In this document: in pieces, positions 1,413 through 32,631 of the stretch
Layout: each line of letters opens with the position of its first letter
Position numbering within the stretch: the first letter of the stretch is position 1
IMG/VR virus record: IMGVR_UViG_3300032212_000687
Coordinates: 1 to 36,057 of that record
Source of the DNA: a virus
Taxonomy: Duplodnaviria; Caudoviricetes
Strand: one strand, 5' to 3'
DNA length: 36,057 bases
Made by a program: the position numbers and the translations under genes
Notes under the pieces: generated by a model
What the model was told of the DNA's origin: nothing
The model's database searches: none
Seen by the model: the letters and a program-made list of their open reading frames with translations, nothing else

Positions 1413-1430
1413 AAAAAGGGATTCATCCCT
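1413..1430 (-). terminator. Possible weak intrinsic terminator after the tail operon
   Basis: Minus strand AGGGA-TGAA-TCCCT followed by TTTT, at the stop of the 1040-aa gene. Confidence 0.4.
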
Positions 1431-4400
1431 AACCTACCTTGCTAACTATTCCAGATCCATTAGCTGTGAACCCTTTGACATTGCTTGCCATAGTTCCTAA
1501 TGATGCAGTAAATATCTTGTTATAAAACCATAAATCAAAATGCCAGGCATTATTTTCTGATCTTAATCTCCAATGCACTACATCTTTTCTCCATGCAGGA
1601 GCAAACCTGTCATGGTTTAACTCTATAGTTGGGAATACATAACTATAATCTACCCCGTCAATATTCCACCTAAGCCTAAAATTACCATTTGCGGAAAAGT
1701 CAGAGTATGTAGTAAGATCCAAATAATTTCCATCAGCTGTAGCTTCAAACGTTAATGACATAGAATTTAATTGAGACATAACATCTACATTAAAAGATAA
1801 AACTGTAATCTCTCCATTGGTTGCTTGTTGACTCCCCCACATCGGAGAGAACACACCATCAATCGAGTTATTTCCAGAGATAGGCTCATTAAATATTGCT
1901 GTTAAAATATCTGAAGATTTACCACCTTCCGGCACAATAACTCCATGTAAGTGGTTTTTAGTAATTTGCATAGCTCCGACAAGAAGTCTTGTACCACTTC
2001 CGTAGTGTCTAATGTATGATCTTACTTTTCCAGTAAACCCTGTATGCACTTGCACCGGAACCGAATACACATGCCATCCATTATCTGGAGGCACAGAATA
2101 TCCAAGCCTAACCTTTCGCATTGGCTCTCCCCAATCCCCAACATAGATCGATGGCCTAATGTATGCGTTTATACCGCTTGTAGGGTCAAGTCTTCTTACT
2201 GCCATAGTTGCAACATATACTTCTCCTGATATTGCAGAAAATACAGAATTTGGCCTAATGTAACCCCATCTTACATCATTTGTTTTTCTTCTTGACACAT
2301 AATCGGAGCTTGTGTCAATAACATATACATCACTATTAAAATCTGATGTTGTATTCCCTCCCCCGATTAGCAGAAGTTCTTCTGATACGGGGTTTAATGC
2401 TAACAGTGGCAATTTCTTATCAGGTGGGGGTATTGTCACAGTGTTCCCGTCTTCATCTACAAAACTGTCCAGTTCATATGTAACATTTTCCCATTGTGAT
2501 AATGTTAAATCGTATGCATAAGGTGCTAAATAATCAGGAGTAGTAGTTGACCCTGCGCACCCTCCAAAAATATAAATTTTATTGTCTGTTGCGCTATATA
2601 CAGCTGAAGCTTGCCGTCTTGAAAACTGCATAGGTATATATGATGATACTGAGCTTATTAAGTTGTATTTATACACACTTAATAGTGTTGTTGACCCGGT
2701 CCATCCCCCTATCACCCATATATCGTCTCCAACAATTACCGTCGAGTGCCATCCTCTAGCCGAAAAAAAATCGTCTATCCCATTTGTTTTCTTTAGTACG
2801 GTCTCCGACCATGTAGCGATATCTATAATTAGTGTTTCTGAACGATACCCTACGCTAGTTCTTCCTCCGGTTATTACCAGTTTTCCATTCCAGTAATTCA
2901 TCCTATGACGGTTTAACCCTTCTCCATAGAATGCAACCGTATGAGCTAGTTCCCAGGAATTTGTTTCGATTCCACTAATCAGTATTTTGTATATCTTATC
3001 TTGGTAAACGCCGTTATATCCACCAAATGCATATATGTATGTACCATCATTTACTATTTGAATACCTTTTGCCGCATAGGGAAGACTTGGTAAACTGATC
3101 TGTACTAATGAAGGCTTGTAAATACCAAACATATTGTCTCCAATGGCTGGAGGTGGCGGTGGCTGAAGTTCTTCTGCATAAAATTTTGAACTATATCCTA
3201 GCTGTGTTTCTCCCCCTGCTGTAAAAATATATCCCTTGCTATCTAGCAAAGGATCATAATGAACAGTTACCCCACCATTGTTAAATGCATAAGGCCAACT
3301 AGACGAATCAGGTCTGTTTATTACTATTGATGTTTCTGTATAGTGTGGATTTGGAAGTACATTGTTTTGCACAGCTAAATTATTATAATTAAACCAAGGA
3401 GGTCTGTTATCAGTAAAATTCCATGCTTGTGTAAAGTGAGAATTATTATTAACTACTTCCGCACTTAGTATTTCAGGAGCACAAACAATACCTACTCGTT
3501 CCGCTGCTAAAGTATCTCTGGCGGACATAACTACTCCGGTTATTGCATCTAAAACGGATGTTCCGCCAACACCCACGTTTTCGTTATGAGTGTACTCAAA
3601 CTGTCCTGACCACGCATCAGGTCGAAACTCTCTTCTTAATGCATAGCTAATGTATGGCTTTCTGCTTGATCTCCGCTCTACTGGAGTAGGCTGTGCATTT
3701 GCTATTGTAAACTGTGTATTCCAATCTCGTTTTTCCATTATTGATTTCATATAAAGATAAGATGCTCTCTGCTGCTTATAGGCTCTTATATCTCCATCCC
3801 ATATCTGATCGGTTAAGAACCCATATGTAGTCCTAGAAAACCATCCATGAATATCCAAAAAAGATATTATTCTTGATTTTCTATCAATAGTTAAAAAATT
3901 ATCTGTGTTCTTATTTTCAATTTCTGAAAGTGCTGATACTCCTTTATCGGGGTCAGCTGAATAATCCCAAAAATACCCCCAATTTCTATTTAAATTTATA
4001 TTGTTTGCATTGCGTCTTTCATTTATCATAAATCCATCTGGGTTAGGTATCGCTATCCAAAATAGCGATATATTATTACGCATCCATACGGATAGTTCAT
4101 CTGTGCTTGACAAGTAGTGATTAATGAATTCTATAACCCCATGATAAGAATGATTTTCCCCGCCATGCGTAGCGGTATGCAAGCAAACTATAGGTTTATT
4201 ACCATCATCGTTTATTCTTAGTGTTCCCATCTCAAGAGCACTTGGCAGTACCGTACCTCCAGCAATACGAGAAGCATCCTCATAAATAACATTTGTATTT
4301 GCCGTGTCTAAGGCTTTAAGGCTTGCTACTACATCCGCATATGTTGGCCTGATTGTTGTGTCATTAAGTGTTGATACATAGGGCAATACGTCTTGAAAAG

Positions 4401-4551
4401 CCATTGGCGATTCTTGAACTCGTTCATAGCATGGCTCATTTACTTGAACTTCTTTGTACTGCATAGTAAGAGCTGTTGAGCTTCTGCTTAATGACCAAGA
4501 TACAGGGTAGTCTTTCAACTTGTCAGACTTTGAAACATCCTTTAGTGTCAT
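1429..4551 (-). CDS. Tail-tip/receptor-binding protein with M14 zinc-carboxypeptidase domain and Kelch beta-propeller
   Basis: HGGE, NPDG, RRNANNINLNRNW and DIHG M14 motifs; six hydrophobic-GG Kelch motifs; last gene of tail operon. Confidence 0.8.
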   Translation of the reverse strand: MTLKDVSKSDKLKDYPVSWSLSRSSTALTMQYKEVQVNEPCYERVQESPMAFQDVLPYVSTLNDTTIRPTYADVVASLKALDTANTNVIYEDASRIAGGTVLPSALEMGTLRINDDGNKPIVCLHTATHGGENHSYHGVIEFINHYLSSTDELSVWMRNNISLFWIAIPNPDGFMINERRNANNINLNRNWGYFWDYSADPDKGVSALSEIENKNTDNFLTIDRKSRIISFLDIHGWFSRTTYGFLTDQIWDGDIRAYKQQRASYLYMKSIMEKRDWNTQFTIANAQPTPVERRSSRKPYISYALRREFRPDAWSGQFEYTHNENVGVGGTSVLDAITGVVMSARDTLAAERVGIVCAPEILSAEVVNNNSHFTQAWNFTDNRPPWFNYNNLAVQNNVLPNPHYTETSIVINRPDSSSWPYAFNNGGVTVHYDPLLDSKGYIFTAGGETQLGYSSKFYAEELQPPPPPAIGDNMFGIYKPSLVQISLPSLPYAAKGIQIVNDGTYIYAFGGYNGVYQDKIYKILISGIETNSWELAHTVAFYGEGLNRHRMNYWNGKLVITGGRTSVGYRSETLIIDIATWSETVLKKTNGIDDFFSARGWHSTVIVGDDIWVIGGWTGSTTLLSVYKYNLISSVSSYIPMQFSRRQASAVYSATDNKIYIFGGCAGSTTTPDYLAPYAYDLTLSQWENVTYELDSFVDEDGNTVTIPPPDKKLPLLALNPVSEELLLIGGGNTTSDFNSDVYVIDTSSDYVSRRKTNDVRWGYIRPNSVFSAISGEVYVATMAVRRLDPTSGINAYIRPSIYVGDWGEPMRKVRLGYSVPPDNGWHVYSVPVQVHTGFTGKVRSYIRHYGSGTRLLVGAMQITKNHLHGVIVPEGGKSSDILTAIFNEPISGNNSIDGVFSPMWGSQQATNGEITVLSFNVDVMSQLNSMSLTFEATADGNYLDLTTYSDFSANGNFRLRWNIDGVDYSYVFPTIELNHDRFAPAWRKDVVHWRLRSENNAWHFDLWFYNKIFTASLGTMASNVKGFTANGSGIVSKVG

Positions 4552-11327: not shown

Positions 11328-11690
11328 CTATCCTTTTAAATTAAACTCAATTAGCTGCCTAAACAGCTCTGTTTCTGATTCATACGCTGAACGTGAGTTG
11401 AGACCATGCGCCATATGAATAAAGCTATGCATGGAACTTTGAACCATTCCTTTTAGTGCTAAAGCTTCGTCAAAATCTTTGCTGTAGCAGTCAACCTGTA
11501 CCAGGACATCAAATCCGTATGGCTCTCGAGAGTTGATGGCCTGTAGTTCTTTATTATTTACAATAGTGCAAACAACTACAGGCATCACACTGTCTTGAGG
11601 CATAAGAAGAGGGTATATCCTCTCAGCTACCAAAGATACGATACCCGTATCATTTGACAAATGAGAAAATAGATCAACTTCGATACTCAT
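11328..11690 (-). CDS. Tail terminator (DUF3168-like)
   Basis: LVAERIYP and VQVDCY motifs. Confidence 0.85.
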   Translation of the reverse strand: MSIEVDLFSHLSNDTGIVSLVAERIYPLLMPQDSVMPVVVCTIVNNKELQAINSREPYGFDVLVQVDCYSKDFDEALALKGMVQSSMHSFIHMAHGLNSRSAYESETELFRQLIEFNLKG

Positions 11691-12094
11691 TGTTTTGCCT
11701 TTTGGATCTCTTTTTCTATTCGTTTGGCCATGTATGATCTAACGGCGACTATGGACTCTTTCCCCTTGTTTTCATAGGCAGGTCTAAGAAATGGATTCGC
11801 TGCCATCTTGGAAGTTCCAAATTCAAAAAAATGTGCCAAATATCCATGTTTATTTTTCAACTTTGGTACGACACTGAATATGATTAAGTTCTTGTTTTTA
11901 CTTCTGCGCTTAACCACAGTTATCGACTTCTTAAGAGATCCGGTATCTTTAGATACATTCAGTTGTGCTTCTTTCTTAATTAAGGTCCCGCCTGCACGAA
12001 TAGCACCTGTGACAACATTTTTTTGTACATTCACAGGGAACTTCTCAAGAGACTTGATCAGCTCCTCCAGCCCTTTCACAGATGAATCAGCCAT
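11687..12094 (-). CDS. HK97 gp10-like tail completion protein
   Basis: DTGSLKKSI and EFGTSKMAANPFLRPA motifs. Confidence 0.9.
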   Translation of the reverse strand: MADSSVKGLEELIKSLEKFPVNVQKNVVTGAIRAGGTLIKKEAQLNVSKDTGSLKKSITVVKRRSKNKNLIIFSVVPKLKNKHGYLAHFFEFGTSKMAANPFLRPAYENKGKESIVAVRSYMAKRIEKEIQKAKQ

Positions 12095-12420
12095 CAAAAC
12101 ACCTCCGTAGCCATGATGTGAAGCTCTCTGTTACGTTCAAACGGATTAATAATAGAATCGATATTAAAGACTCTGAGCCCATAGACAATCTTCATCTGTG
12201 AATTCAGATCACTTCGATATCTCAGACGTATCTTATGGCTCACCTCAGTCTTTAGACCCTTAGACACATATCTCTCTTCCATTTTTAGAGGAATAATCTG
12301 CACCATCTCATAAGGATTAAGAGAAAGATCTGCCCAAATTTTTCCAACTGCACCCGTGGCACTTTTCATACCGATGTTTTCTTGGAAAGTGACCTTATGT
12401 ATTAAGTTTCCGCTTCGCAT
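12094..12420 (-). CDS. Head closure protein (SPP1 gp16-like)
   Basis: MRSGNLIHKVTFQ, HKIRLRYR and FNIDSI motifs. Confidence 0.88.
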   Translation of the reverse strand: MRSGNLIHKVTFQENIGMKSATGAVGKIWADLSLNPYEMVQIIPLKMEERYVSKGLKTEVSHKIRLRYRSDLNSQMKIVYGLRVFNIDSIINPFERNRELHIMATEVF

Positions 12421-12977
12421 TAGAACTCTTTAACCCGATATTGATTAAGCATATTGTCAATCAATGACTTAGGCATTTCTGCTACACTAACACCTACAAC
12501 AAGTTCTTCCCTATTTTCATAAAGAGTTGCCACTTTAATTTTCATCCACTGAACGATACTTTCAGGGACATTCGTATACCCACCTATAAAAGTTATCTTC
12601 ACTGACTTTTTATGATCTGCAACCGTAACGCTTGGTAATGTCTTAAACAAGATAGTTGCAACTCCATTTGCTTCATATAGATAATAGGTAGAACTGTCAA
12701 TTGTTTGATAAACTTCATTTTCATCAAGGTACTCAATTGAAACTATCGAAGACACTGGGTTTTTAGGAAGCTTTAACCCATCCATAAACCCAGTGCAATA
12801 AAGCTCAAAAGTAGCCGTCTTAAGTTGTCTATTTGTGATGTTTTCTGCAAACTCACGCGAAGCAACAATAAGAGAAGTAATTAGCGAATCGTCATCGGGA
12901 TTTAAGACACGAAGAAACTCTTTTGCGTCTGCTAATGATAAAGGCTCTATTACCGGGGCTACTGTTTGAACTAACAT
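12420..12977 (-). CDS. Head-tail connector (gp6/gp15-like)
   Basis: EPLSLADAKEFLRV and LYENRE motifs. Confidence 0.9.
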   Translation of the reverse strand: MLVQTVAPVIEPLSLADAKEFLRVLNPDDDSLITSLIVASREFAENITNRQLKTATFELYCTGFMDGLKLPKNPVSSIVSIEYLDENEVYQTIDSSTYYLYEANGVATILFKTLPSVTVADHKKSVKITFIGGYTNVPESIVQWMKIKVATLYENREELVVGVSVAEMPKSLIDNMLNQYRVKEF

Positions 12978-26181: not shown

Positions 26182-26373
26182 CTAAGCTACTTTTTTGTCG
26201 TCACTTTTTAGATATGATTTAATGTCGTGCCAAGCTATTACTGGAATTTTTAACTTTGTATTTGCCTCATGCATAACAGTAATATTGGGTTTTCTTCTTC
26301 CTGAAAGAACACTTTTTGCCATATCCGACTCGTAATGCTCTAATAAGAGTTCTTTTAATTTTTGTCTTTTCAT
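26182..26373 (-). CDS. Cro-like repressor, probably leaderless
   Basis: Divergent from cI; SVLSGRRKP helix; ATG 26373 lies 6 nt after a TACAAT box. Confidence 0.7.
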   Translation of the reverse strand: MKRQKLKELLLEHYESDMAKSVLSGRRKPNITVMHEANTKLKIPVIAWHDIKSYLKSDDKKVA

Positions 26374-26381
26374 AACTAGAT

Positions 26382-26456
26382 TGTACACAATGTACTCTTT
26401 AAGTAACTTTAAATAATTGTACATTATGTATTTTTACATTTTGTACAATTAGTACA
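26382..26456. promoter_or_regulatory. OR-like operators and divergent promoters
   Basis: GTAC-N5-GTAC at 26383-26395 and 26443-26455; GTAC-N5-GTAT at 26419-26431. Confidence 0.8.
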
Positions 26457-26471
26457 CAAGGAAAATTTATT

Positions 26472-27137
26472 ATGTTTGCAGAAAATTTCAATAAAGTTTT
26501 AAAAGATGCAGGGATTACAAACAAAGCCCTTGCAGAATATATTACTGATAATGGACGTAAAATAAGTAAAGAGTCAATTGCCAAATATAGAGATGGAAGC
26601 AGAACTCCTGATCCTGATATTATTTCTTTTGCTGCTGAAATGGCAAAAGTGACTGAGCAGTCTTTTTTTACTAGTGGGCCAGTTCCAACAATACAAATAG
26701 ATCCAAACTACACAGAGCTACCAACAATCTACGCCGGCGCAGGAGCTGTTGGGTATGCAGTAGATAATGCAGAAAGAAGATCTTATCCTAACGAGCTTAT
26801 CCCCCCGCATATCGCGTTGGATGAGAACGCATTAGTGATCATTGTCGCCGGAAACTCTATGGAACCTCTTTACTATGAAAACGATGTGGTTTTTATAGAT
26901 ATGGTTAATGGCCGGGATTTTATTCAGATAGACGGTACCTATTTAGTGCGGTATGGGGAAACAGTGCAGATCAAAGATGTTAAATTTTTAGGAAACAATG
27001 ATATTATGATATCGAGTAGAAATGACAGCCACACCTTCATGGTAAAAAAAGATCTTGGTATTGATGATTGGGAGATAGTTGGTAAACCTTATGTCAACAT
27101 TCATGCTACTGTTGGTAGTAAATTGAAGATTAATTAG
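26472..27137 (+). CDS. cI: CI-like repressor (XRE HTH + S24 peptidase)
   Basis: N-terminal HTH, AG cleavage site (YAGAG), VAGNSMEP serine and QIK lysine. Confidence 0.93.
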   Translation: MFAENFNKVLKDAGITNKALAEYITDNGRKISKESIAKYRDGSRTPDPDIISFAAEMAKVTEQSFFTSGPVPTIQIDPNYTELPTIYAGAGAVGYAVDNAERRSYPNELIPPHIALDENALVIIVAGNSMEPLYYENDVVFIDMVNGRDFIQIDGTYLVRYGETVQIKDVKFLGNNDIMISSRNDSHTFMVKKDLGIDDWEIVGKPYVNIHATVGSKLKIN

Positions 27138-27243: not shown

Positions 27244-27750
27244 ATGACAGACACTAATGAGTACAAACAAAATTCCTTGGCTATTGCTAATTATTTTATA
27301 GAAATAAGCGATCATAAAGTAACGCCTCTTCAGCTTGTCAAACTTGTGTTTTTAACTTATGGTTGGGGACTTGCGTTTTTTCAAAAAAGACTTTTTGAAG
27401 AAAGGATAGAAGCTTGGAAGTTCGGGCCAGTCATTCCATCCGTGTATCACACATTTAAGCATTATCAGAGAAATAATATTACGGAGCAATCTACAGAGTT
27501 AAAATTTGATGACAACAACCAATTTATTACATGTCATATTCCAATTATTGGAAAACATAAGGAAAAAATTGAATCTCTCATTAGAGAGGTGTGGGAAGTT
27601 CATAAAGAATACAATGCTTACGAACTAATTGATATGACTCATGTTGAAGGCTCTCCATGGAAGAAAGTATATAAAGACCATGAACGACACACCCAGCTCC
27701 AAGATGAAGATATACAAAATTACTACACAAAGCTAATGAATGAGCAGTAG
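27244..27750 (+). CDS. Panacea (DUF4065/SocA-like) antitoxin-domain protein
   Basis: IANYFI, LQLVKLVF, IEAWKFGPVIPSVY and MTHVEGSPW motifs. Confidence 0.9.
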   Translation: MTDTNEYKQNSLAIANYFIEISDHKVTPLQLVKLVFLTYGWGLAFFQKRLFEERIEAWKFGPVIPSVYHTFKHYQRNNITEQSTELKFDDNNQFITCHIPIIGKHKEKIESLIREVWEVHKEYNAYELIDMTHVEGSPWKKVYKDHERHTQLQDEDIQNYYTKLMNEQ

Positions 27751-28147
27751 TAGTGGTGGTATTAGGGTTGTCTCTGCACATGTAAATACAGTACAAGGCA
27801 ATGGATCATATTCCGAGAAAAATACAGTTACAAAAGCAAAAGAAGAAAACGAAGCAGCAGAGCACAATGACAAACAAGATGTCCGGGGTCACATTGTAAG
27901 GATTTTTAAACGTATTCTTAGCGCTGGAAGCATCTTTATTATTGCTGTAATGTTTATATATTTTATATCTTTAGTTCTTGAGCCATTTGTTTTAAATGTA
28001 GGATTGGTAAAAAAGAATTTTGAGATGCTATTCTTTAAAATAATTGAGCTTTTGCCTTGGGTGCTTTTGTTTATATTTGGCGATAAAGCAAAAATATTTA
28101 ATTTTCTAAAACTTGCAAACTCCTCTGAAGAAGATAAAAAAGATTAA
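27740..28147 (+). CDS. Two-TM membrane protein, putative partner toxin of Panacea
   Basis: Overlaps the Panacea gene; two hydrophobic segments. Confidence 0.6.
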   Translation: MSSSSGGIRVVSAHVNTVQGNGSYSEKNTVTKAKEENEAAEHNDKQDVRGHIVRIFKRILSAGSIFIIAVMFIYFISLVLEPFVLNVGLVKKNFEMLFFKIIELLPWVLLFIFGDKAKIFNFLKLANSSEEDKKD

Positions 28148-28152
28148 ACATT

Positions 28153-28536
28153 TTATGGTCGATAATACAGGCTCATAGACTTATCCGGTGTAATAGTCCA
28201 TATAGTAATCCCCTCTTTCTCAGCTACCTTCTTTAATCGGATCAAATACTTTTCATCTTTCACATGATCTTCCATGATAAGCAACACAGCAGGTTTTCTA
28301 TTTGTCATATATCCATAGAATAGAGCTTGTCCTATACTCTCAGCCCACTTACTCGCAAAGTCTGCCTCTACTGCATATTCATCCATAAGACAATCCACGC
28401 GAGTCTTATCTTCAAGCCTGTATTCGACTATCCCCTGCTTCTCGTCACAAAATATTTGCTGATACCATTTTTCTTTATGCAAATGCTTCGCGAAACTGAT
28501 ATTGCATAGTGCTAGAAACAATATAAAAAATTTCAT
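28153..28536 (-). CDS. Exported protein with PD-(D/E)xK-like motifs
   Basis: Signal peptide MKFFILFLALCNISFA; E..RVD..AVEAD..IGQALFY. Confidence 0.65.
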   Translation of the reverse strand: MKFFILFLALCNISFAKHLHKEKWYQQIFCDEKQGIVEYRLEDKTRVDCLMDEYAVEADFASKWAESIGQALFYGYMTNRKPAVLLIMEDHVKDEKYLIRLKKVAEKEGITIWTITPDKSMSLYYRP

Positions 28537-28542
28537 ATGGAA

Positions 28543-29325
28543 TTACTCATCTTTAGGCACTATGTTGTAAAGTTTGGTGATTTCATACAATTTCGGGGAC
28601 CCGTTTACTTTATGCACCGTGACATCCACCAGGAAGTAGTTATTATATGGGTTGTCTAGTATTGCTTTACTATCATCTGCATTAAGTATCGTTGTAGCAA
28701 CTGCTTTTCGTTTCAAAATATCATCACAGTATGCCTTGTGCTTGACTTGCTTATCACTGTCTATGGTTTGATGCATCTCGATTAGAACTTTTTCATGAGC
28801 TGGACTTTCTTTTTCTTCTGCCGGAGAGGATTTTATCTGTTTTACAATATCGGCACTTTTCTTTATTTTGTCTGCCTCCTCTGAGTTGATCTGAAAAATG
28901 TTTATTTCATTATTATTTCCGCCATACACCTCTATGCTCAAAGATGATGAACTATTGTTTTCAATAGGCTTAACAATAGTTTGAACCTGGTTTGCGCTGT
29001 TTACTGTCAGTGACGCATCATTTTCTATCTCATTTATAGTTTTATCTTCCAGCCCTATATAGTTCTTTAAATACCCAGTGAAAGAGGCTACGGTATTAAA
29101 ACTCTCTACTATGGGAAGAACATGCGAAGCAAATATAAAAGACAGCTGATATATATCGCACCCCTCTTTTACCCCCTGCAACATTACTCTCGTATTTTTT
29201 AGCCCATGCTCTTTGCTGATCCTCTCTGATGCAAGCTCGCTTAATGATATTAGTGAGTTTGCCATATCTATAAGGTCAACGGGTTCATTGTGTCTAAGTC
29301 TTACGTCTATTCGTAAATTTTCCAT
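28543..29325 (-). CDS. Accessory hypothetical protein
   Basis: Long ORF in immunity region; likely start MENLRID after GAGG. Confidence 0.75.
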   Translation of the reverse strand: MENLRIDVRLRHNEPVDLIDMANSLISLSELASERISKEHGLKNTRVMLQGVKEGCDIYQLSFIFASHVLPIVESFNTVASFTGYLKNYIGLEDKTINEIENDASLTVNSANQVQTIVKPIENNSSSSLSIEVYGGNNNEINIFQINSEEADKIKKSADIVKQIKSSPAEEKESPAHEKVLIEMHQTIDSDKQVKHKAYCDDILKRKAVATTILNADDSKAILDNPYNNYFLVDVTVHKVNGSPKLYEITKLYNIVPKDE

Positions 29326-29407
29326 ATTTATAAGCACCTCTTTCTTGTTAAACATTATTATACCTCATTCGTTAATTTATGTAAGTTTAGCATAGATTTT
29401 ACATATT

Positions 29408-29459
29408 TGTACATATTGTACTCTTTTAAGCTGTCTATAAGTAGTACATAGTGTACAAT
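29408..29459 (+). promoter_or_regulatory. OL/PL-like operators and promoter
   Basis: GTAC-N5-GTAC at 29409-29421 and 29444-29456; TACAAT at 29454-29459, same layout as the cro promoter. Confidence 0.8.
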
Positions 29460-29465
29460 ACAAAC

Positions 29466-30180
29466 ATGCAAACGATTTAGACCGTTTGAGTTCAATCACT
29501 TATCAAGAACCCTCTTGTCAGGATAGAGGTTAAATAATCAAGACACAAACTTTTTAATAAGTCGTAGGAATACAGCGCACTGATACATCGGTTTCGAGAT
29601 ACGGGGAAACGCTACGACTTAGAAAGAGTTTTTAAAAAGCCACTATGAATGACCACAATCAAAAAAGATTCATCGGGACTCTTGGTCGAGGTGTCCGGTA
29701 GTGACTTAAAGAGAGTTTTTTATGAAGTGGTGTATCGCTTGCAATAACCCTAATTCTTTGACATATGGCAGACGCTTGGACATGGCAACCACTTCACCGA
29801 GAGCTTTAAAAGAAGATCGTATAAACCGAACCTGACTCCCAAAGATCTAACTCATACTTATCGAAAACAATTTAACTTTTTTCGCTTGTGGACGTGCGAT
29901 TGCGGTTTTCTTTTAAAGTTCTCATTCATATGCAACGACTAGCAAAACGAACTGAGTAAGTCAAAACTCTTAGCCTTGACAAGGTAACGGTTTGCGGTGG
30001 GTTGTGTATGTGTGAGGACTTTCCTTAGCGTGTGCCTTTGGTGGCATTTGTAGTGTATGTTTAGTTAGTGAAACGAAGTGTTGCCTCTTTTGGTGGAGGC
30101 TGAATATATAAATAAAGAATGTTCAAAGAGTCTGCTTATCTCTTCCCTAATGGATAAGTAAGCTCACTCTTTGAGGATCA
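29466..30180 (+). ncRNA. Long structured early leader / candidate ncRNA array
   Basis: No long plus-strand ORF; at least six long inverted-repeat units. Confidence 0.55.
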
Positions 30181-30194
30181 TGTAAGGGGTTTAT

Positions 30195-30374
30195 ATGAGA
30201 TATGACGAGATCAGAGACGAGCTTCGCAGATTTAAAGAAGCAGGTATCGATGTGACAGTAGGACAGTTTGCAAGATACATTGAAACGAAGTCTAAAGAGG
30301 TGGTTGTAAAACCTTACAAGTTTAAGATACTGACAGGACGAGCGACTAAACACAACCTGTCAGCAATCGCATAA
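30195..30374 (+). CDS. 59-aa basic early protein
   Basis: MRYDEIRDELRRFK...LSAIA; AAGGGG RBS; read manually. Confidence 0.65.
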   Translation: MRYDEIRDELRRFKEAGIDVTVGQFARYIETKSKEVVVKPYKFKILTGRATKHNLSAIA

Positions 30375-30468: not shown

Positions 30469-30579
30469 ATGATTGTTGAATTTATATTAGCAATGTCCGG
30501 GATCATAGTTTGTGGTTTATGCATAGTTTGGTATGACCGCTATAAGGAAGATAATAGAGAATGGGGAGAAAATCCATGA
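30469..30579 (+). CDS. 36-aa single-TM peptide
   Basis: MIVEFILAMSGIIVCGLCIVWYDRYK...; ATGA overlap with recE-like gene. Confidence 0.5.
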   Translation: MIVEFILAMSGIIVCGLCIVWYDRYKEDNREWGENP

Positions 30580-31361
30580 CAAATGAAGCGTATCATGCTA
30601 GACCCGAGCTAAGTGCTTCTAGCATTAAGACTATTTTAAAAAATCCGTATGAGTTTTTGAACCCGATAAGAAGAGAGACAAAAAACTTTTCTATAGGGTC
30701 CGCTGTTCATAAGCTGATTTTAGAGCCTCATGAGTTCGATGATGAATTTGTGGTTGCTCCCGAGATCAATAAGCGAACCAAAGAAGGAAAAGATGTTTGG
30801 GCAAAGTTTGAAGAGGCAAATCAAAACAAGACCGTTCTATCTAAAGAAGATTTCTACTTATGTAAAAGCTGTTCAGAATCTGTTCTACAACATGATGAGG
30901 CTAAGTTATTCTTAACCGGTGGAGTCGCAGAGAGTAGCCACTTCGGAAAACTTGAAGGGGTGTCGGTCAAATGCCGTCCTGACTATTACCGTGAGGACAT
31001 CGGTGTTGTTGTTGACGTAAAGACAACGCAAGACGCTTCTCCTGACGGGTTTGTTAAAGACGTTGCAAACTTCGGCTATTACGTTCAGGCGAAGTTCTAC
31101 ATAGACACACTTGAGAGTATTGGCAAAAAAGCAGATAAATTTCTATTTATTGTCGTTCAAAAGACCGCCCCTTTCATGGTCGGTATGTATGAGCTTGATC
31201 CAACTGCTTTGGACTTTGGGAAAGATGAGTACCTTAGAGCGTTGGACATCTATAGTCACATAGAAGATTTTAAAATGCCTATATTTAAAGATACAGTTGA
31301 TGAAACAGTAGTACAAACACTAACCCTTCCATCATGGGTTTATTATAAGAAAGGAGCTTAA
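30576..31361 (+). CDS. RecE/exonuclease VIII-like PD-(D/E)xK nuclease (DUF3799)
   Basis: YHA..LSASSIK, GSAVH, KCRPD..DVKTT and GYYVQA..Y motifs. Confidence 0.92.
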   Translation: MTNEAYHARPELSASSIKTILKNPYEFLNPIRRETKNFSIGSAVHKLILEPHEFDDEFVVAPEINKRTKEGKDVWAKFEEANQNKTVLSKEDFYLCKSCSESVLQHDEAKLFLTGGVAESSHFGKLEGVSVKCRPDYYREDIGVVVDVKTTQDASPDGFVKDVANFGYYVQAKFYIDTLESIGKKADKFLFIVVQKTAPFMVGMYELDPTALDFGKDEYLRALDIYSHIEDFKMPIFKDTVDETVVQTLTLPSWVYYKKGA

Positions 31362-31363
31362 TT

Positions 31364-32152
31364 ATGCGTCAAGTAGCTGTAAGAGAGCAAGAGATTAAAA
31401 CTGGTCTTGTTGCTCAACAAAAGATCATCAAATCTCTTCTTGGTGACAAAGCAAAGTCTGATAAGTTTATGGCAACGGCGGTCAAAGTAGCCAATGACTA
31501 TAAGCTATCAAAATGTAATACGAACAGTATCATCGATGCATGTGTAACTGTGGCTCAGATGGGTCTTGACCTAAGCCCTATCCTATCTCACGCTTACCTT
31601 GTGCCTTTTGGTAATAACGTTCAGCTTATTGTATCTGCAAGAGGATACACGGCATTATTATCGCGTACTGGATGGAAGACTAAGACCTACATCGTAAATG
31701 AAGCCGACACCTTTGAATACAAAATAGATGGTTTTAATGAGATTGTTACGTTTGAAAAAGACATTGACGATGAAAAAGAGATCTTTAAATATGCCGTTGC
31801 TTTGGCTCAGTCACCGGACGGGACTTTGTACGTTGAAGTGATGAACAAAAAACAAATTGATAAACACAGACAGTCAAGCAGCAATCAAAAGGACAAACCT
31901 AGCGGAGTGTGGGCTGAGTGGTTTGCTGAAATGGCAAAGAAAACTGTTTTGAAAAAGCTTGTCAAGTCTCTGCCTATGGGTGAAGATGTTTCGATGGTGC
32001 TTAGTAAGGATGATAAGCCTGTTGAAGCAGAGATCATTGAACAGCCTGTTGATCTAAATGACATGGTTGCACAGAACCATGAGACAGGTGAAGTTGATGA
32101 GGCTAACGATGTCTTAGAGGATGTAGAGTATCAAGAAAAGGGAAGTGCATAA
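31364..32152 (+). CDS. recT: RecT recombinase
   Basis: GLDLSP..AYLVPF and W..WFAEMAKKTVLK motifs. Confidence 0.92.
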   Translation: MRQVAVREQEIKTGLVAQQKIIKSLLGDKAKSDKFMATAVKVANDYKLSKCNTNSIIDACVTVAQMGLDLSPILSHAYLVPFGNNVQLIVSARGYTALLSRTGWKTKTYIVNEADTFEYKIDGFNEIVTFEKDIDDEKEIFKYAVALAQSPDGTLYVEVMNKKQIDKHRQSSSNQKDKPSGVWAEWFAEMAKKTVLKKLVKSLPMGEDVSMVLSKDDKPVEAEIIEQPVDLNDMVAQNHETGEVDEANDVLEDVEYQEKGSA

Positions 32153-32631
32153 TGTATAACAAAGTAGTAATGGTCGGAAACCTGACCAGAGATATTGAGC
32201 TTAGATATGCCCAGTCCGGGAGCGCAATCGCAAACACAGCCATTGCGACAAGCCGTAAGTTCACACAGAACGGAGAGCGTAAAGAAGAAGTGTGTTTTAT
32301 GGACATTACTTTTTTTGGTCGTTCTGCTGAAGTTGCCAACCAATACCTAAGACGTGGGAGTAAAATCTTAGTAGAAGGTCGTTTGAAATTTGATCAGTGG
32401 GTTGCCCAAGATGGTAGCAAACGTTCAAAACATTCTGTGATCGTTGAAACTATGCAGATGATGGATAGTAAGTCAGATGGTCAACAACAAGATCAAGCGC
32501 ATCAATCACACACAGATTATCAACAGCAGCCTGACAATCAACAGATGCAGCAACAATCTTATGGCGGTCAACAAACCATGCCTACTCAAACTCCTGAAAT
32601 TGACATTGACGAAGACGAGATCCCCTTTTAA
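32152..32631 (+). CDS. ssb: Single-stranded DNA-binding protein
   Basis: NKVVMVGNLTRDIELRY, VEGRL motifs and DEDEIPF tail. Confidence 0.97.
   Translation: MYNKVVMVGNLTRDIELRYAQSGSAIANTAIATSRKFTQNGERKEEVCFMDITFFGRSAEVANQYLRRGSKILVEGRLKFDQWVAQDGSKRSKHSVIVETMQMMDSKSDGQQQDQAHQSHTDYQQQPDNQQMQQQSYGGQQTMPTQTPEIDIDEDEIPF

Follow-up and report, generated by a model that had tools for sequence, protein, structure and literature searches.

The DNA analysed here (henceforth the window) is the whole of a 36,057-base virus record, IMGVR_UViG_3300032212_000687 (Caudoviricetes). From its gene content, with a CII-like gene, a CI-type repressor and then exonuclease VIII, RecT, SSB and integrase on the + strand, it reads as a temperate phage of the lambdoid type. 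The named close relatives of its exonuclease are from Epsilonproteobacteria, Sulfurimonadaceae, Sulfurovum and Sulfuricurvum, so the host is probably a free-living member of the Campylobacterota. The window DNA occurs again inside a 172-kb contig (L118), which was not counted as independent; since it continues there past the integrase with a 267-aa gene (11664-12467), the phage appears to be integrated. Between cI and the early promoter there are four accessory genes (27244-29355), namely a Panacea-domain gene with a 135-aa partner, possibly a toxin-antitoxin pair, and two minus-strand genes without an assigned function. PADLOC, run on six neighbour genes, returned a single weak match. A late protein of 1040 aa (1429-4551) combines an M14 peptidase-like stretch with Kelch repeats. 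The features of the immunity and early region are as follows.

26182-26424, - strand: cro-like gene (labelled cro from its position only)
26472-27137, + strand: CI-type repressor gene (PHROG 4, E 2e-22; Peptidase_S24)
29409..29421, no strand: OL2, operator-like palindrome, perfect match to GTACA-N3-TGTAC
29444..29456, no strand: OL1, operator-like palindrome overlapping the likely -10 box
29455..29460, + strand: likely -10 box TACAAT of the early promoter, read by eye
29469..29488, + strand: 5' hairpin with an 8-bp stem (listed on the minus strand by the scan; G161 has hairpins at the same place)
29490..29505, + strand: stretch partly resembling a conserved spacer element of host rrn operons (profile from six host elements)
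29547..29631, + strand: unit 1, 9+10 bp helix with a 2x1 loop, enclosing motif A subtype 1 (29568-29611)
29625..29719, + strand: unit 2, irregular, weaker helix of ~16 bp, with motif A subtype 2 and its predicted pseudoknot (29647-29697)
29711..29807, + strand: unit 3, 9+9 bp helix with a 2x2 loop, a refillable slot with its cargo at 29732-29787
29799..29923, + strand: unit 4, unbroken 22 bp helix with an 81-nt cargo
29915..30022, + strand: unit 5, 11+10 bp helix with a 1x1 loop, enclosing a two-hairpin junction
30119..30179, + strand: unit 6, long irregular hairpin just upstream of the ribosome site of the first gene
30195..30374, + strand: first gene of the operon, 59 aa, without a family match
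30561-32631, + strand: exonuclease VIII, RecT and SSB, downstream of the 59-aa first gene

The palindrome GTACA-N3-TGTAC, with at most one mismatch, has six matches in all, four in the cro-cI gap (26383-26455) and two before the leader. A prophage in the closed genome G161 has its own, different palindrome, once in the cro-cI gap and twice ahead of its leader. Because the palindromes sit in both places, with the same layout in G161, repression of the early promoter by CI, which would bind at these sites, is well supported. The sequence-only reading of this DNA had placed the leader at the head of a CI-repressed transcript, a position that the operators and the gene order support. A sigma-70 consensus scan missed the TACAAT box. 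The early transcript would start near 29464-29467, and a related contig from another study begins to match the leader at 29464. Within the leader, no + strand terminator was found. The rrn spacer element, which we take to be boxA-like, has a partial match here: over the first 16 positions of the profile, a cut chosen after seeing the data, the window site ranks 4 of 72,082, and over the full 23-mer only 334 of 72,068. The G161 copy ranks 1 of 6,170, and the element is top-ranked in four of 15 related phage loci, G161 among them. One locus (L399, G001:C32), whose 16S fragment and spacer seem unlike those of other genomes, was excluded from this comparison. A pattern search for the boxA-like word gave 27 matches, all dropped as chance.

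The gene-free leader right behind the repressor-binding sites is a chain of stem-closed modules, and its stems are real and above chance. All six stems proposed in the sequence-only reading were located where it had put them. Between 29466 and 30180 there are four perfect non-overlapping helices of at least 9 bp (with at least three G-C and at most two G-U pairs, a filter that drops unit 2 for a mismatch and unit 4 for three G-U pairs), against a shuffle mean of 1.19; four were reached in none of 300 shuffles and in none of 96 other 715-nt tiles of the window. With the threshold at 8 bp or more the excess was not significant (39 of 300 shuffles, 11 of 96 tiles). Folding of the whole leader gave z = -2.49 (0 of 20 shuffles), and units 1 to 6 taken singly gave -4.27, +0.48, -1.36, -3.75, -5.28 and -4.36, which means that, taken alone, neither unit 2 nor unit 3 stands out. 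Folded with their flanks, units 1-5 are each closed by a helix of 16-22 bp, in a common build of outer helix, small internal loop and inner helix; the unit 2 stem contains one C.A mismatch and the unit 4 stem extends to 22 pairs. For units 4 and 6, no homologue was found among the loci compared.

Some details of that reading had to be revised. The related motif that it saw after four of the stems is present, but is really the 3' arms of the outer helices. The segment 29915-29923 can pair upstream or downstream, as proposed, but it is not unique in this, as all four internal linkers pair either way. Nor are the cargos a set of unrelated 35-90 nt inserts: units 1 and 2 are related, both containing motif A, and unit 6, with its 5-nt loop, is no cargo carrier. 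Because the 3' arm of one outer helix doubles as the 5' arm of the next, adjoining outer helices are mutually exclusive. The winning set of helices varies with the folding settings and we therefore claim no helix order; no ensemble setting gave the outer helix of unit 2 a probability above 0.00, and allowing long-range pairs abolishes units 2-3. A model in which only the odd units are cut was dropped, as it was not robust to these settings.

The leader is very probably made of structured, exchangeable RNA units. Exchange, suggested in the sequence-only reading, is borne out by short contigs from another study (run X2), by G161 and by the unit order in other phages. Three X2 contigs lie on the leader, two of them at a depth of ~3. 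One (record 3) matches 29464-29545 and resumes at 29629, the missing 83 bases being exactly unit 1 plus one linker. Another (record 4) keeps the arms of unit 3 and replaces 55 nt between them with 77 other nt, the short side of the joint being only 23 letters. The last (record 5) shares only the 3' arm of unit 4, from 29907, and has a version of unit 5 that differs in 17 places; there, the nine substitutions listed and three indels sit in loops or preserve pairs, and there is a double change from U-A to C-G at 29957/29966. A BLAST search of the leader against 353 genomes gave 81 with E<=0.05, only G161 being strong. In the G161 prophage the leader starts as in the window, unit 1 is absent and a homologue of unit 2 is present (others are in L029 and G174). 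The same slot 3 arms then surround a tRNA-like RNA (Rfam tRNA, 43.1 bits), in which a longer insert replaces the anticodon loop, and the same linker leads to a different fourth unit. Compared across relatives, as that reading had advised, slot order is kept in G161 and slot contents differ. A blastn search against 50,697 phage records gave one 30-nt match, and the leaders of relatives identified by their exonuclease gave no blastn alignment. A look-up of sequencing runs listed none of RNA with this stretch.

The order of cargo families differs between phages, being A-B-B-C in L033 and L207, and tRNA, tRNA-like units, B, B, A in G134. The G134 array (L436:10066-10860, the same as L333 and L368) lies mid-operon in a prophage and includes a complete tRNA-Met(CAT). 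Several of its units have T-loop and D-loop look-alikes and no normal anticodon arm, and the tRNA-Met, the tRNA-like units, the two B units and motif A are joined by repeated AAGAGCTTT linkers. Cargo family B, which does not occur in the window, consists of CATTCAACA ... GGTTTTG inside variable stems, and its order relative to motif A varies. It has seven copies in four loci (L033:6085, 6176; L207:3086, 3177; L212:3106; L436:10636, 10711). A third slot has fixed arms around three different cargos of ~100-130 nt (L033:6245, L207:3245, L211:3183), and two further stem-closed units are nearly unchanged between L029:6470-6720 and L119:1394-1650 while their flanks differ. Elsewhere (L492:206-9532, G174:C263), a leader, one repeat-like 30-mer and ~330 nt of stem-closed units follow a cas operon that, with labels given by eye, has the gene order of type I-B, and the units end in a subtype 2 motif at the contig end; the assembly possibly ran from the first spacer into a phage leader.

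Motif A, the cargo of units 1 and 2, is by its covariation a new RNA fold, predicted to form a three-way junction. It runs from stem P1 through GAA, a variable arm, CAUCG, stem P3 and one G to P1'. A pattern of its core built from sequence only matched 16 viral stretches, of which six were dropped as chance and ten kept; the ten have both stems and a downstream ACGGGG word absent from the search pattern. Altogether, 14 + 4 distinct phage sequences of motif A were collected. In a seed alignment of 11 distinct sequences 96.4% of cells are paired, and 12 of the 15 stem pairs show changes on both sides (P1 10/10, P3 2/5), a covariation count biased upward because the stem filter chose the seed and L033/L207 and L199/L201 are close pairs. 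The covariation score was reached in none of 500 shuffles, and slid controls pair at 33-52%. The fair test is provided by three members found later by model or 3' pattern (G134, L377 and G282), in which P1 pairs at 10/10, 10/10 and 8/10 positions and P3 at 5/5, while P2 switches from A-U to U-A or G-U. On the + strand there are 9 G-U cells versus 2 A-C cells. Our model R1 finds unit 2 as the second-best match of the window (E 0.034), the L029 copy at E 0.016-0.039 and the G161 copy at E 0.003. Together with the G174 copy they make up subtype 2, where a predicted pseudoknot of 5-6 bp joins the 5' junction strand to the P3 loop, in the same register in 4/4 with changed pairs; as G161 and G174 are close, the four represent three lineages. 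Covariation, which the sequence-only reading had named as a check, is therefore seen in motif A at the level of the seed, the held-out members and the subtype 2 pseudoknot.

Motif A is rare. The model found it in 2 of 151 and again 2 of 151 genomes (32 candidates scored per genome), and pattern searches gave three genomes of 401 with a real copy and one of 353; the genomic copies had a prophage-like setting wherever looked at. Model R1 found no copy in those prophage loci, among 91 sources, that come from host-associated Campylobacter, and none in rRNA flanks. Rfam 15 gave no match to motif A and nothing meaningful in eight motif loci. From one pattern scan 116 of 117 rows were dropped as chance (full flanks available for 80) and from another 46 of 55; with the subtype 2 pattern 8 of 11 genomes were dropped, and a backwards control also matched in eight genomes. 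Genes downstream of motif A are unrelated between loci. One copy, accompanied by one further hairpin, stands alone and antisense between scaffold and head-morphogenesis genes (L200:2975-3125), with its own -10-like box, and is directed away from the scaffold and head genes on either side.

How such a leader might be processed can be outlined from these features. Upon induction, the promoter at ~29455 would fire, and the partial rrn-like element may recruit Nus factors. Each unit would form a helix of 16-22 bp that has a small loop at its centre, and host RNase III would cut the linker helices near these loops. As neighbours share a linker, only alternate outer helices could coexist, so that cutting would have to be sequential, or else the in-between units would be freed. 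Each product would retain a clamp of 9-12 bp protecting its ends. Recombination at the short linkers would bring in new units, an exchange that RecT could drive.

We consider it likely that RNase III releases the units. The enzyme is encoded in five of five genomes of the host group, and the flanking duplexes, at 16-22 bp, are long enough for C. jejuni RNase III, which is described as accepting duplexes of 11-20 bp, a combination that fits a DicF-like mode of release. In C. jejuni this enzyme matures CJnc190 from a duplex of its 5' and 3' ends (PMC8687705). RNase III is reported to have little sequence consensus (PMC8708148), which makes helix geometry weak proof of cutting. H. pylori RNase III cuts stems around rRNA (PMC6582327), and the 16S stems of two genomes show a similar pyrimidine/purine stretch, YUUU / RRAG.

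That the released RNAs then act in trans is reasonably probable, a little less so than their release. The stand-alone antisense copy in L200, arrays shared with a full tRNA, unrelated downstream genes and loss of units as blocks would all favour it. Given these two steps, a role as protein decoys against host defence has somewhat below an even chance. The invariant junction of motif A within variable stems, together with the loop-loop contact, would suit recognition of the shape by a protein more than pairing through a seed, and an invariant junction in free stems, tRNA-shaped neighbours without an anticodon loop and gain and loss like that of accessory genes may point the same way. So may, by analogy, the leading position in the lytic transcript and the counter-defence known from phage tRNAs, which are used against tRNA-cutting defences (PMC11555353, PMC10264068). 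ToxN is not supported as the target, since no ToxN-family toxin (PF13958) was over the cut-off in any of 111 host-family genomes, in a scan that covered ToxN and not CptN or TenpN. Taken as a whole, the reading that RNAs freed from the early transcript by RNase III act in trans, chiefly as decoys, is about as probable as its contrary.

The alternatives differ in what the units would do. That they are signals in cis, through put-like or nut-like antitermination by motif A with the rrn-like element or through stabilisation of the early mRNA, such that no free RNA matters, we regard as unlikely, even though most copies of motif A lie at the head of or inside early operons and the motif is the last unit ahead of a gene in seven loci. 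In L029, L199 and L201 it stands directly before the rrn-like element, 5-15 nt ahead, which looks like a cis signal and suggests a point against action in trans. No N-like protein is evident, as the first gene has no family match. Arguing against a cis role are the antisense copy in L200, the dispensability of the motif as a block, its presence at any rank in arrays and in arrays shared with tRNA, and the top rank of the rrn-like element in only 4 of the 15 loci. Base-pairing regulators of mRNAs from host or phage, in the manner of DicF or c4 antisense RNA, are rather improbable products. The long, weakly paired cargos of units 3 and 4 could pair in trans, and DicF itself owes its release from a PL-like prophage operon to RNase III (10.1101/2023.04.14.536235), but the invariant single strands of motif A are only ~5 nt, the big loop of subtype 2 is occupied by covarying internal pairing, and paired complements of two of these strands are near control level in seven phage regions (a weak test, with 5-nt words). 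The 29 weak host-genome matches of the leader that were inspected are scattered and mostly within open frames.

We would give slightly less credit again to motif A as a ribozyme or as an aptamer for a small molecule, perhaps one that soaks up a nucleotide signal. A three-way junction of invariant bases with a loop-loop contact is typical of both; yet self-cleaving ribozyme and riboswitch models in Rfam gave no match, there is neither an expression platform nor a consistent downstream gene, the core order differs from that of the hammerhead (compared by eye with the consensus), and the L377 copy tolerates an 18-nt insert in a junction strand. Very improbable, finally, is that the stems are recombination sites at the DNA level, chance or flanks of micro-ORFs, the RNA having no function. 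The linkers are quasi-palindromic, the units move as blocks and short ORFs exist at 29649-29747 and 29722-29835, but the one-strand G-U bias with covariation and the tRNA cargo in equivalent slots speak against DNA-level sites. As to micro-ORFs, which the sequence-only reading had named as a way to be wrong, none is conserved in the slot compared (slot 3): its ORF has no ribosome site by our filter and shares just four stem-encoded codons with G161 (37 versus 16 aa), and motif A carries indels of any length.

A chain of RNAs probably released by RNase III has partial counterparts among known systems. The closest is DicF of the dicBF operon in the E. coli Qin prophage, a small RNA that RNase III releases from a repressor-controlled, PL-like lambdoid operon (10.1101/2023.04.14.536235), as predicted here. 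DicF, however, is described as a lone RNA, encoded amid protein genes, that RNase E trims and that acts by pairing, whereas here five abutting, swapped units have common linkers and the host group is reported to lack RNase E (PMC8687705). The DicF model of Rfam gave no match; the five chance-level Rfam matches to the window region at E<=10 are all to other models. CJnc190, from the same phylum, resembles what is predicted for the units in that a duplex of the precursor ends is cut by RNase III to give a stabler RNA, but is just one sRNA, encoded in the chromosome, whose mRNA target is known, neither an array nor of phage origin (PMC8687705). In rRNA and tRNA operons, too, products are bracketed by long helices and boxA occurs (PMC6582327, PMC10250234); host 16S helices have YUUU / RRAG, the rrn element is found in some phage leaders and tRNAs in arrays. 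Unlike there, phage cargo is 40-100 nt, variable and mobile, the helices overlap through common linkers, and in the window the element is partial.

The RNA anti-CRISPRs Racr (PMC10651486), rAcrIIA1 and rAcrVIA1 (10.64898/2026.06.03.729762) are phage non-coding decoys, as our units may be, and rAcrVIA1 is reported to act by shape without sequence likeness (10.64898/2026.06.03.729762). They are described, however, as single RNAs near acr genes, and the window units showed no likeness to repeat or tracrRNA: there was no Rfam CRISPR match and none among the BLAST matches inspected, with only one host repeat seen. The c4 / CI antisense RNAs of P1, P7 and P4 are likewise processed multi-stem phage RNAs of early or immunity regions, processing being a prediction in our case. 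The c4 RNA has a multi-stem structure and is processed by RNase P. It is RF01695 in Rfam (PMC2864571). The c4, c4-2 and c4-a1b1 models gave no match, and c4-type paired a/b target sites have counts near those of scrambled controls, a weak test with 5-nt words. ARAGORN and RF00005 detected no tRNA in the window, the hits being in G161 slot 3 (tRNA-like) and one G134 unit. Window units are not tandem near-identical repeats, as a mimic of the type III antitoxin ToxI would be; nor do they form a TIGR or CRISPR array, as they vary from 44 to 81 nt, with no Nop or Cas family among 23-24 scanned proteins. By the tests made, the leader would work in the DicF mode and is not a member of DicF, c4, tRNA or TIGR, with no sign of Racr among the matches inspected.

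No description of such arrays or of motif A was found in the literature covered, which was mostly open-access. In the supplements of Fremin et al. (PMC10690425) that were searched no motif word occurs, and an earlier listing among its alignments is possible. The accessible text of PMC13728456 holds no passage on RNA counter-defence. More speculatively, and with a probability we put well below even, the arrays could correspond, at the RNA level, to clusters of anti-defence genes, as a plug-in operon of Campylobacterota phages in which tRNAs, tRNA-elbow mimics and new folds like motif A would each neutralise one RNA-reading defence protein, the units being gained by linker duplication and freed by one host nuclease.

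The RNA counter-defence so far described in phages consists of a few single RNAs, and an array of this kind shows which pieces are mobile units. The function of gene-free starts of early operons in phages becomes a testable question, with motif A as a short fold defined by covariation for which there are clear mutants to make. Prophages of this type are present in the closed genomes G161 and G333, which may allow RNA mapping if a strain is available. Should motif A act in cis instead, it would be a new antitermination RNA; if it is a decoy, it would represent a novel type of RNA inhibitor, and its partner would reveal an unknown defence system.
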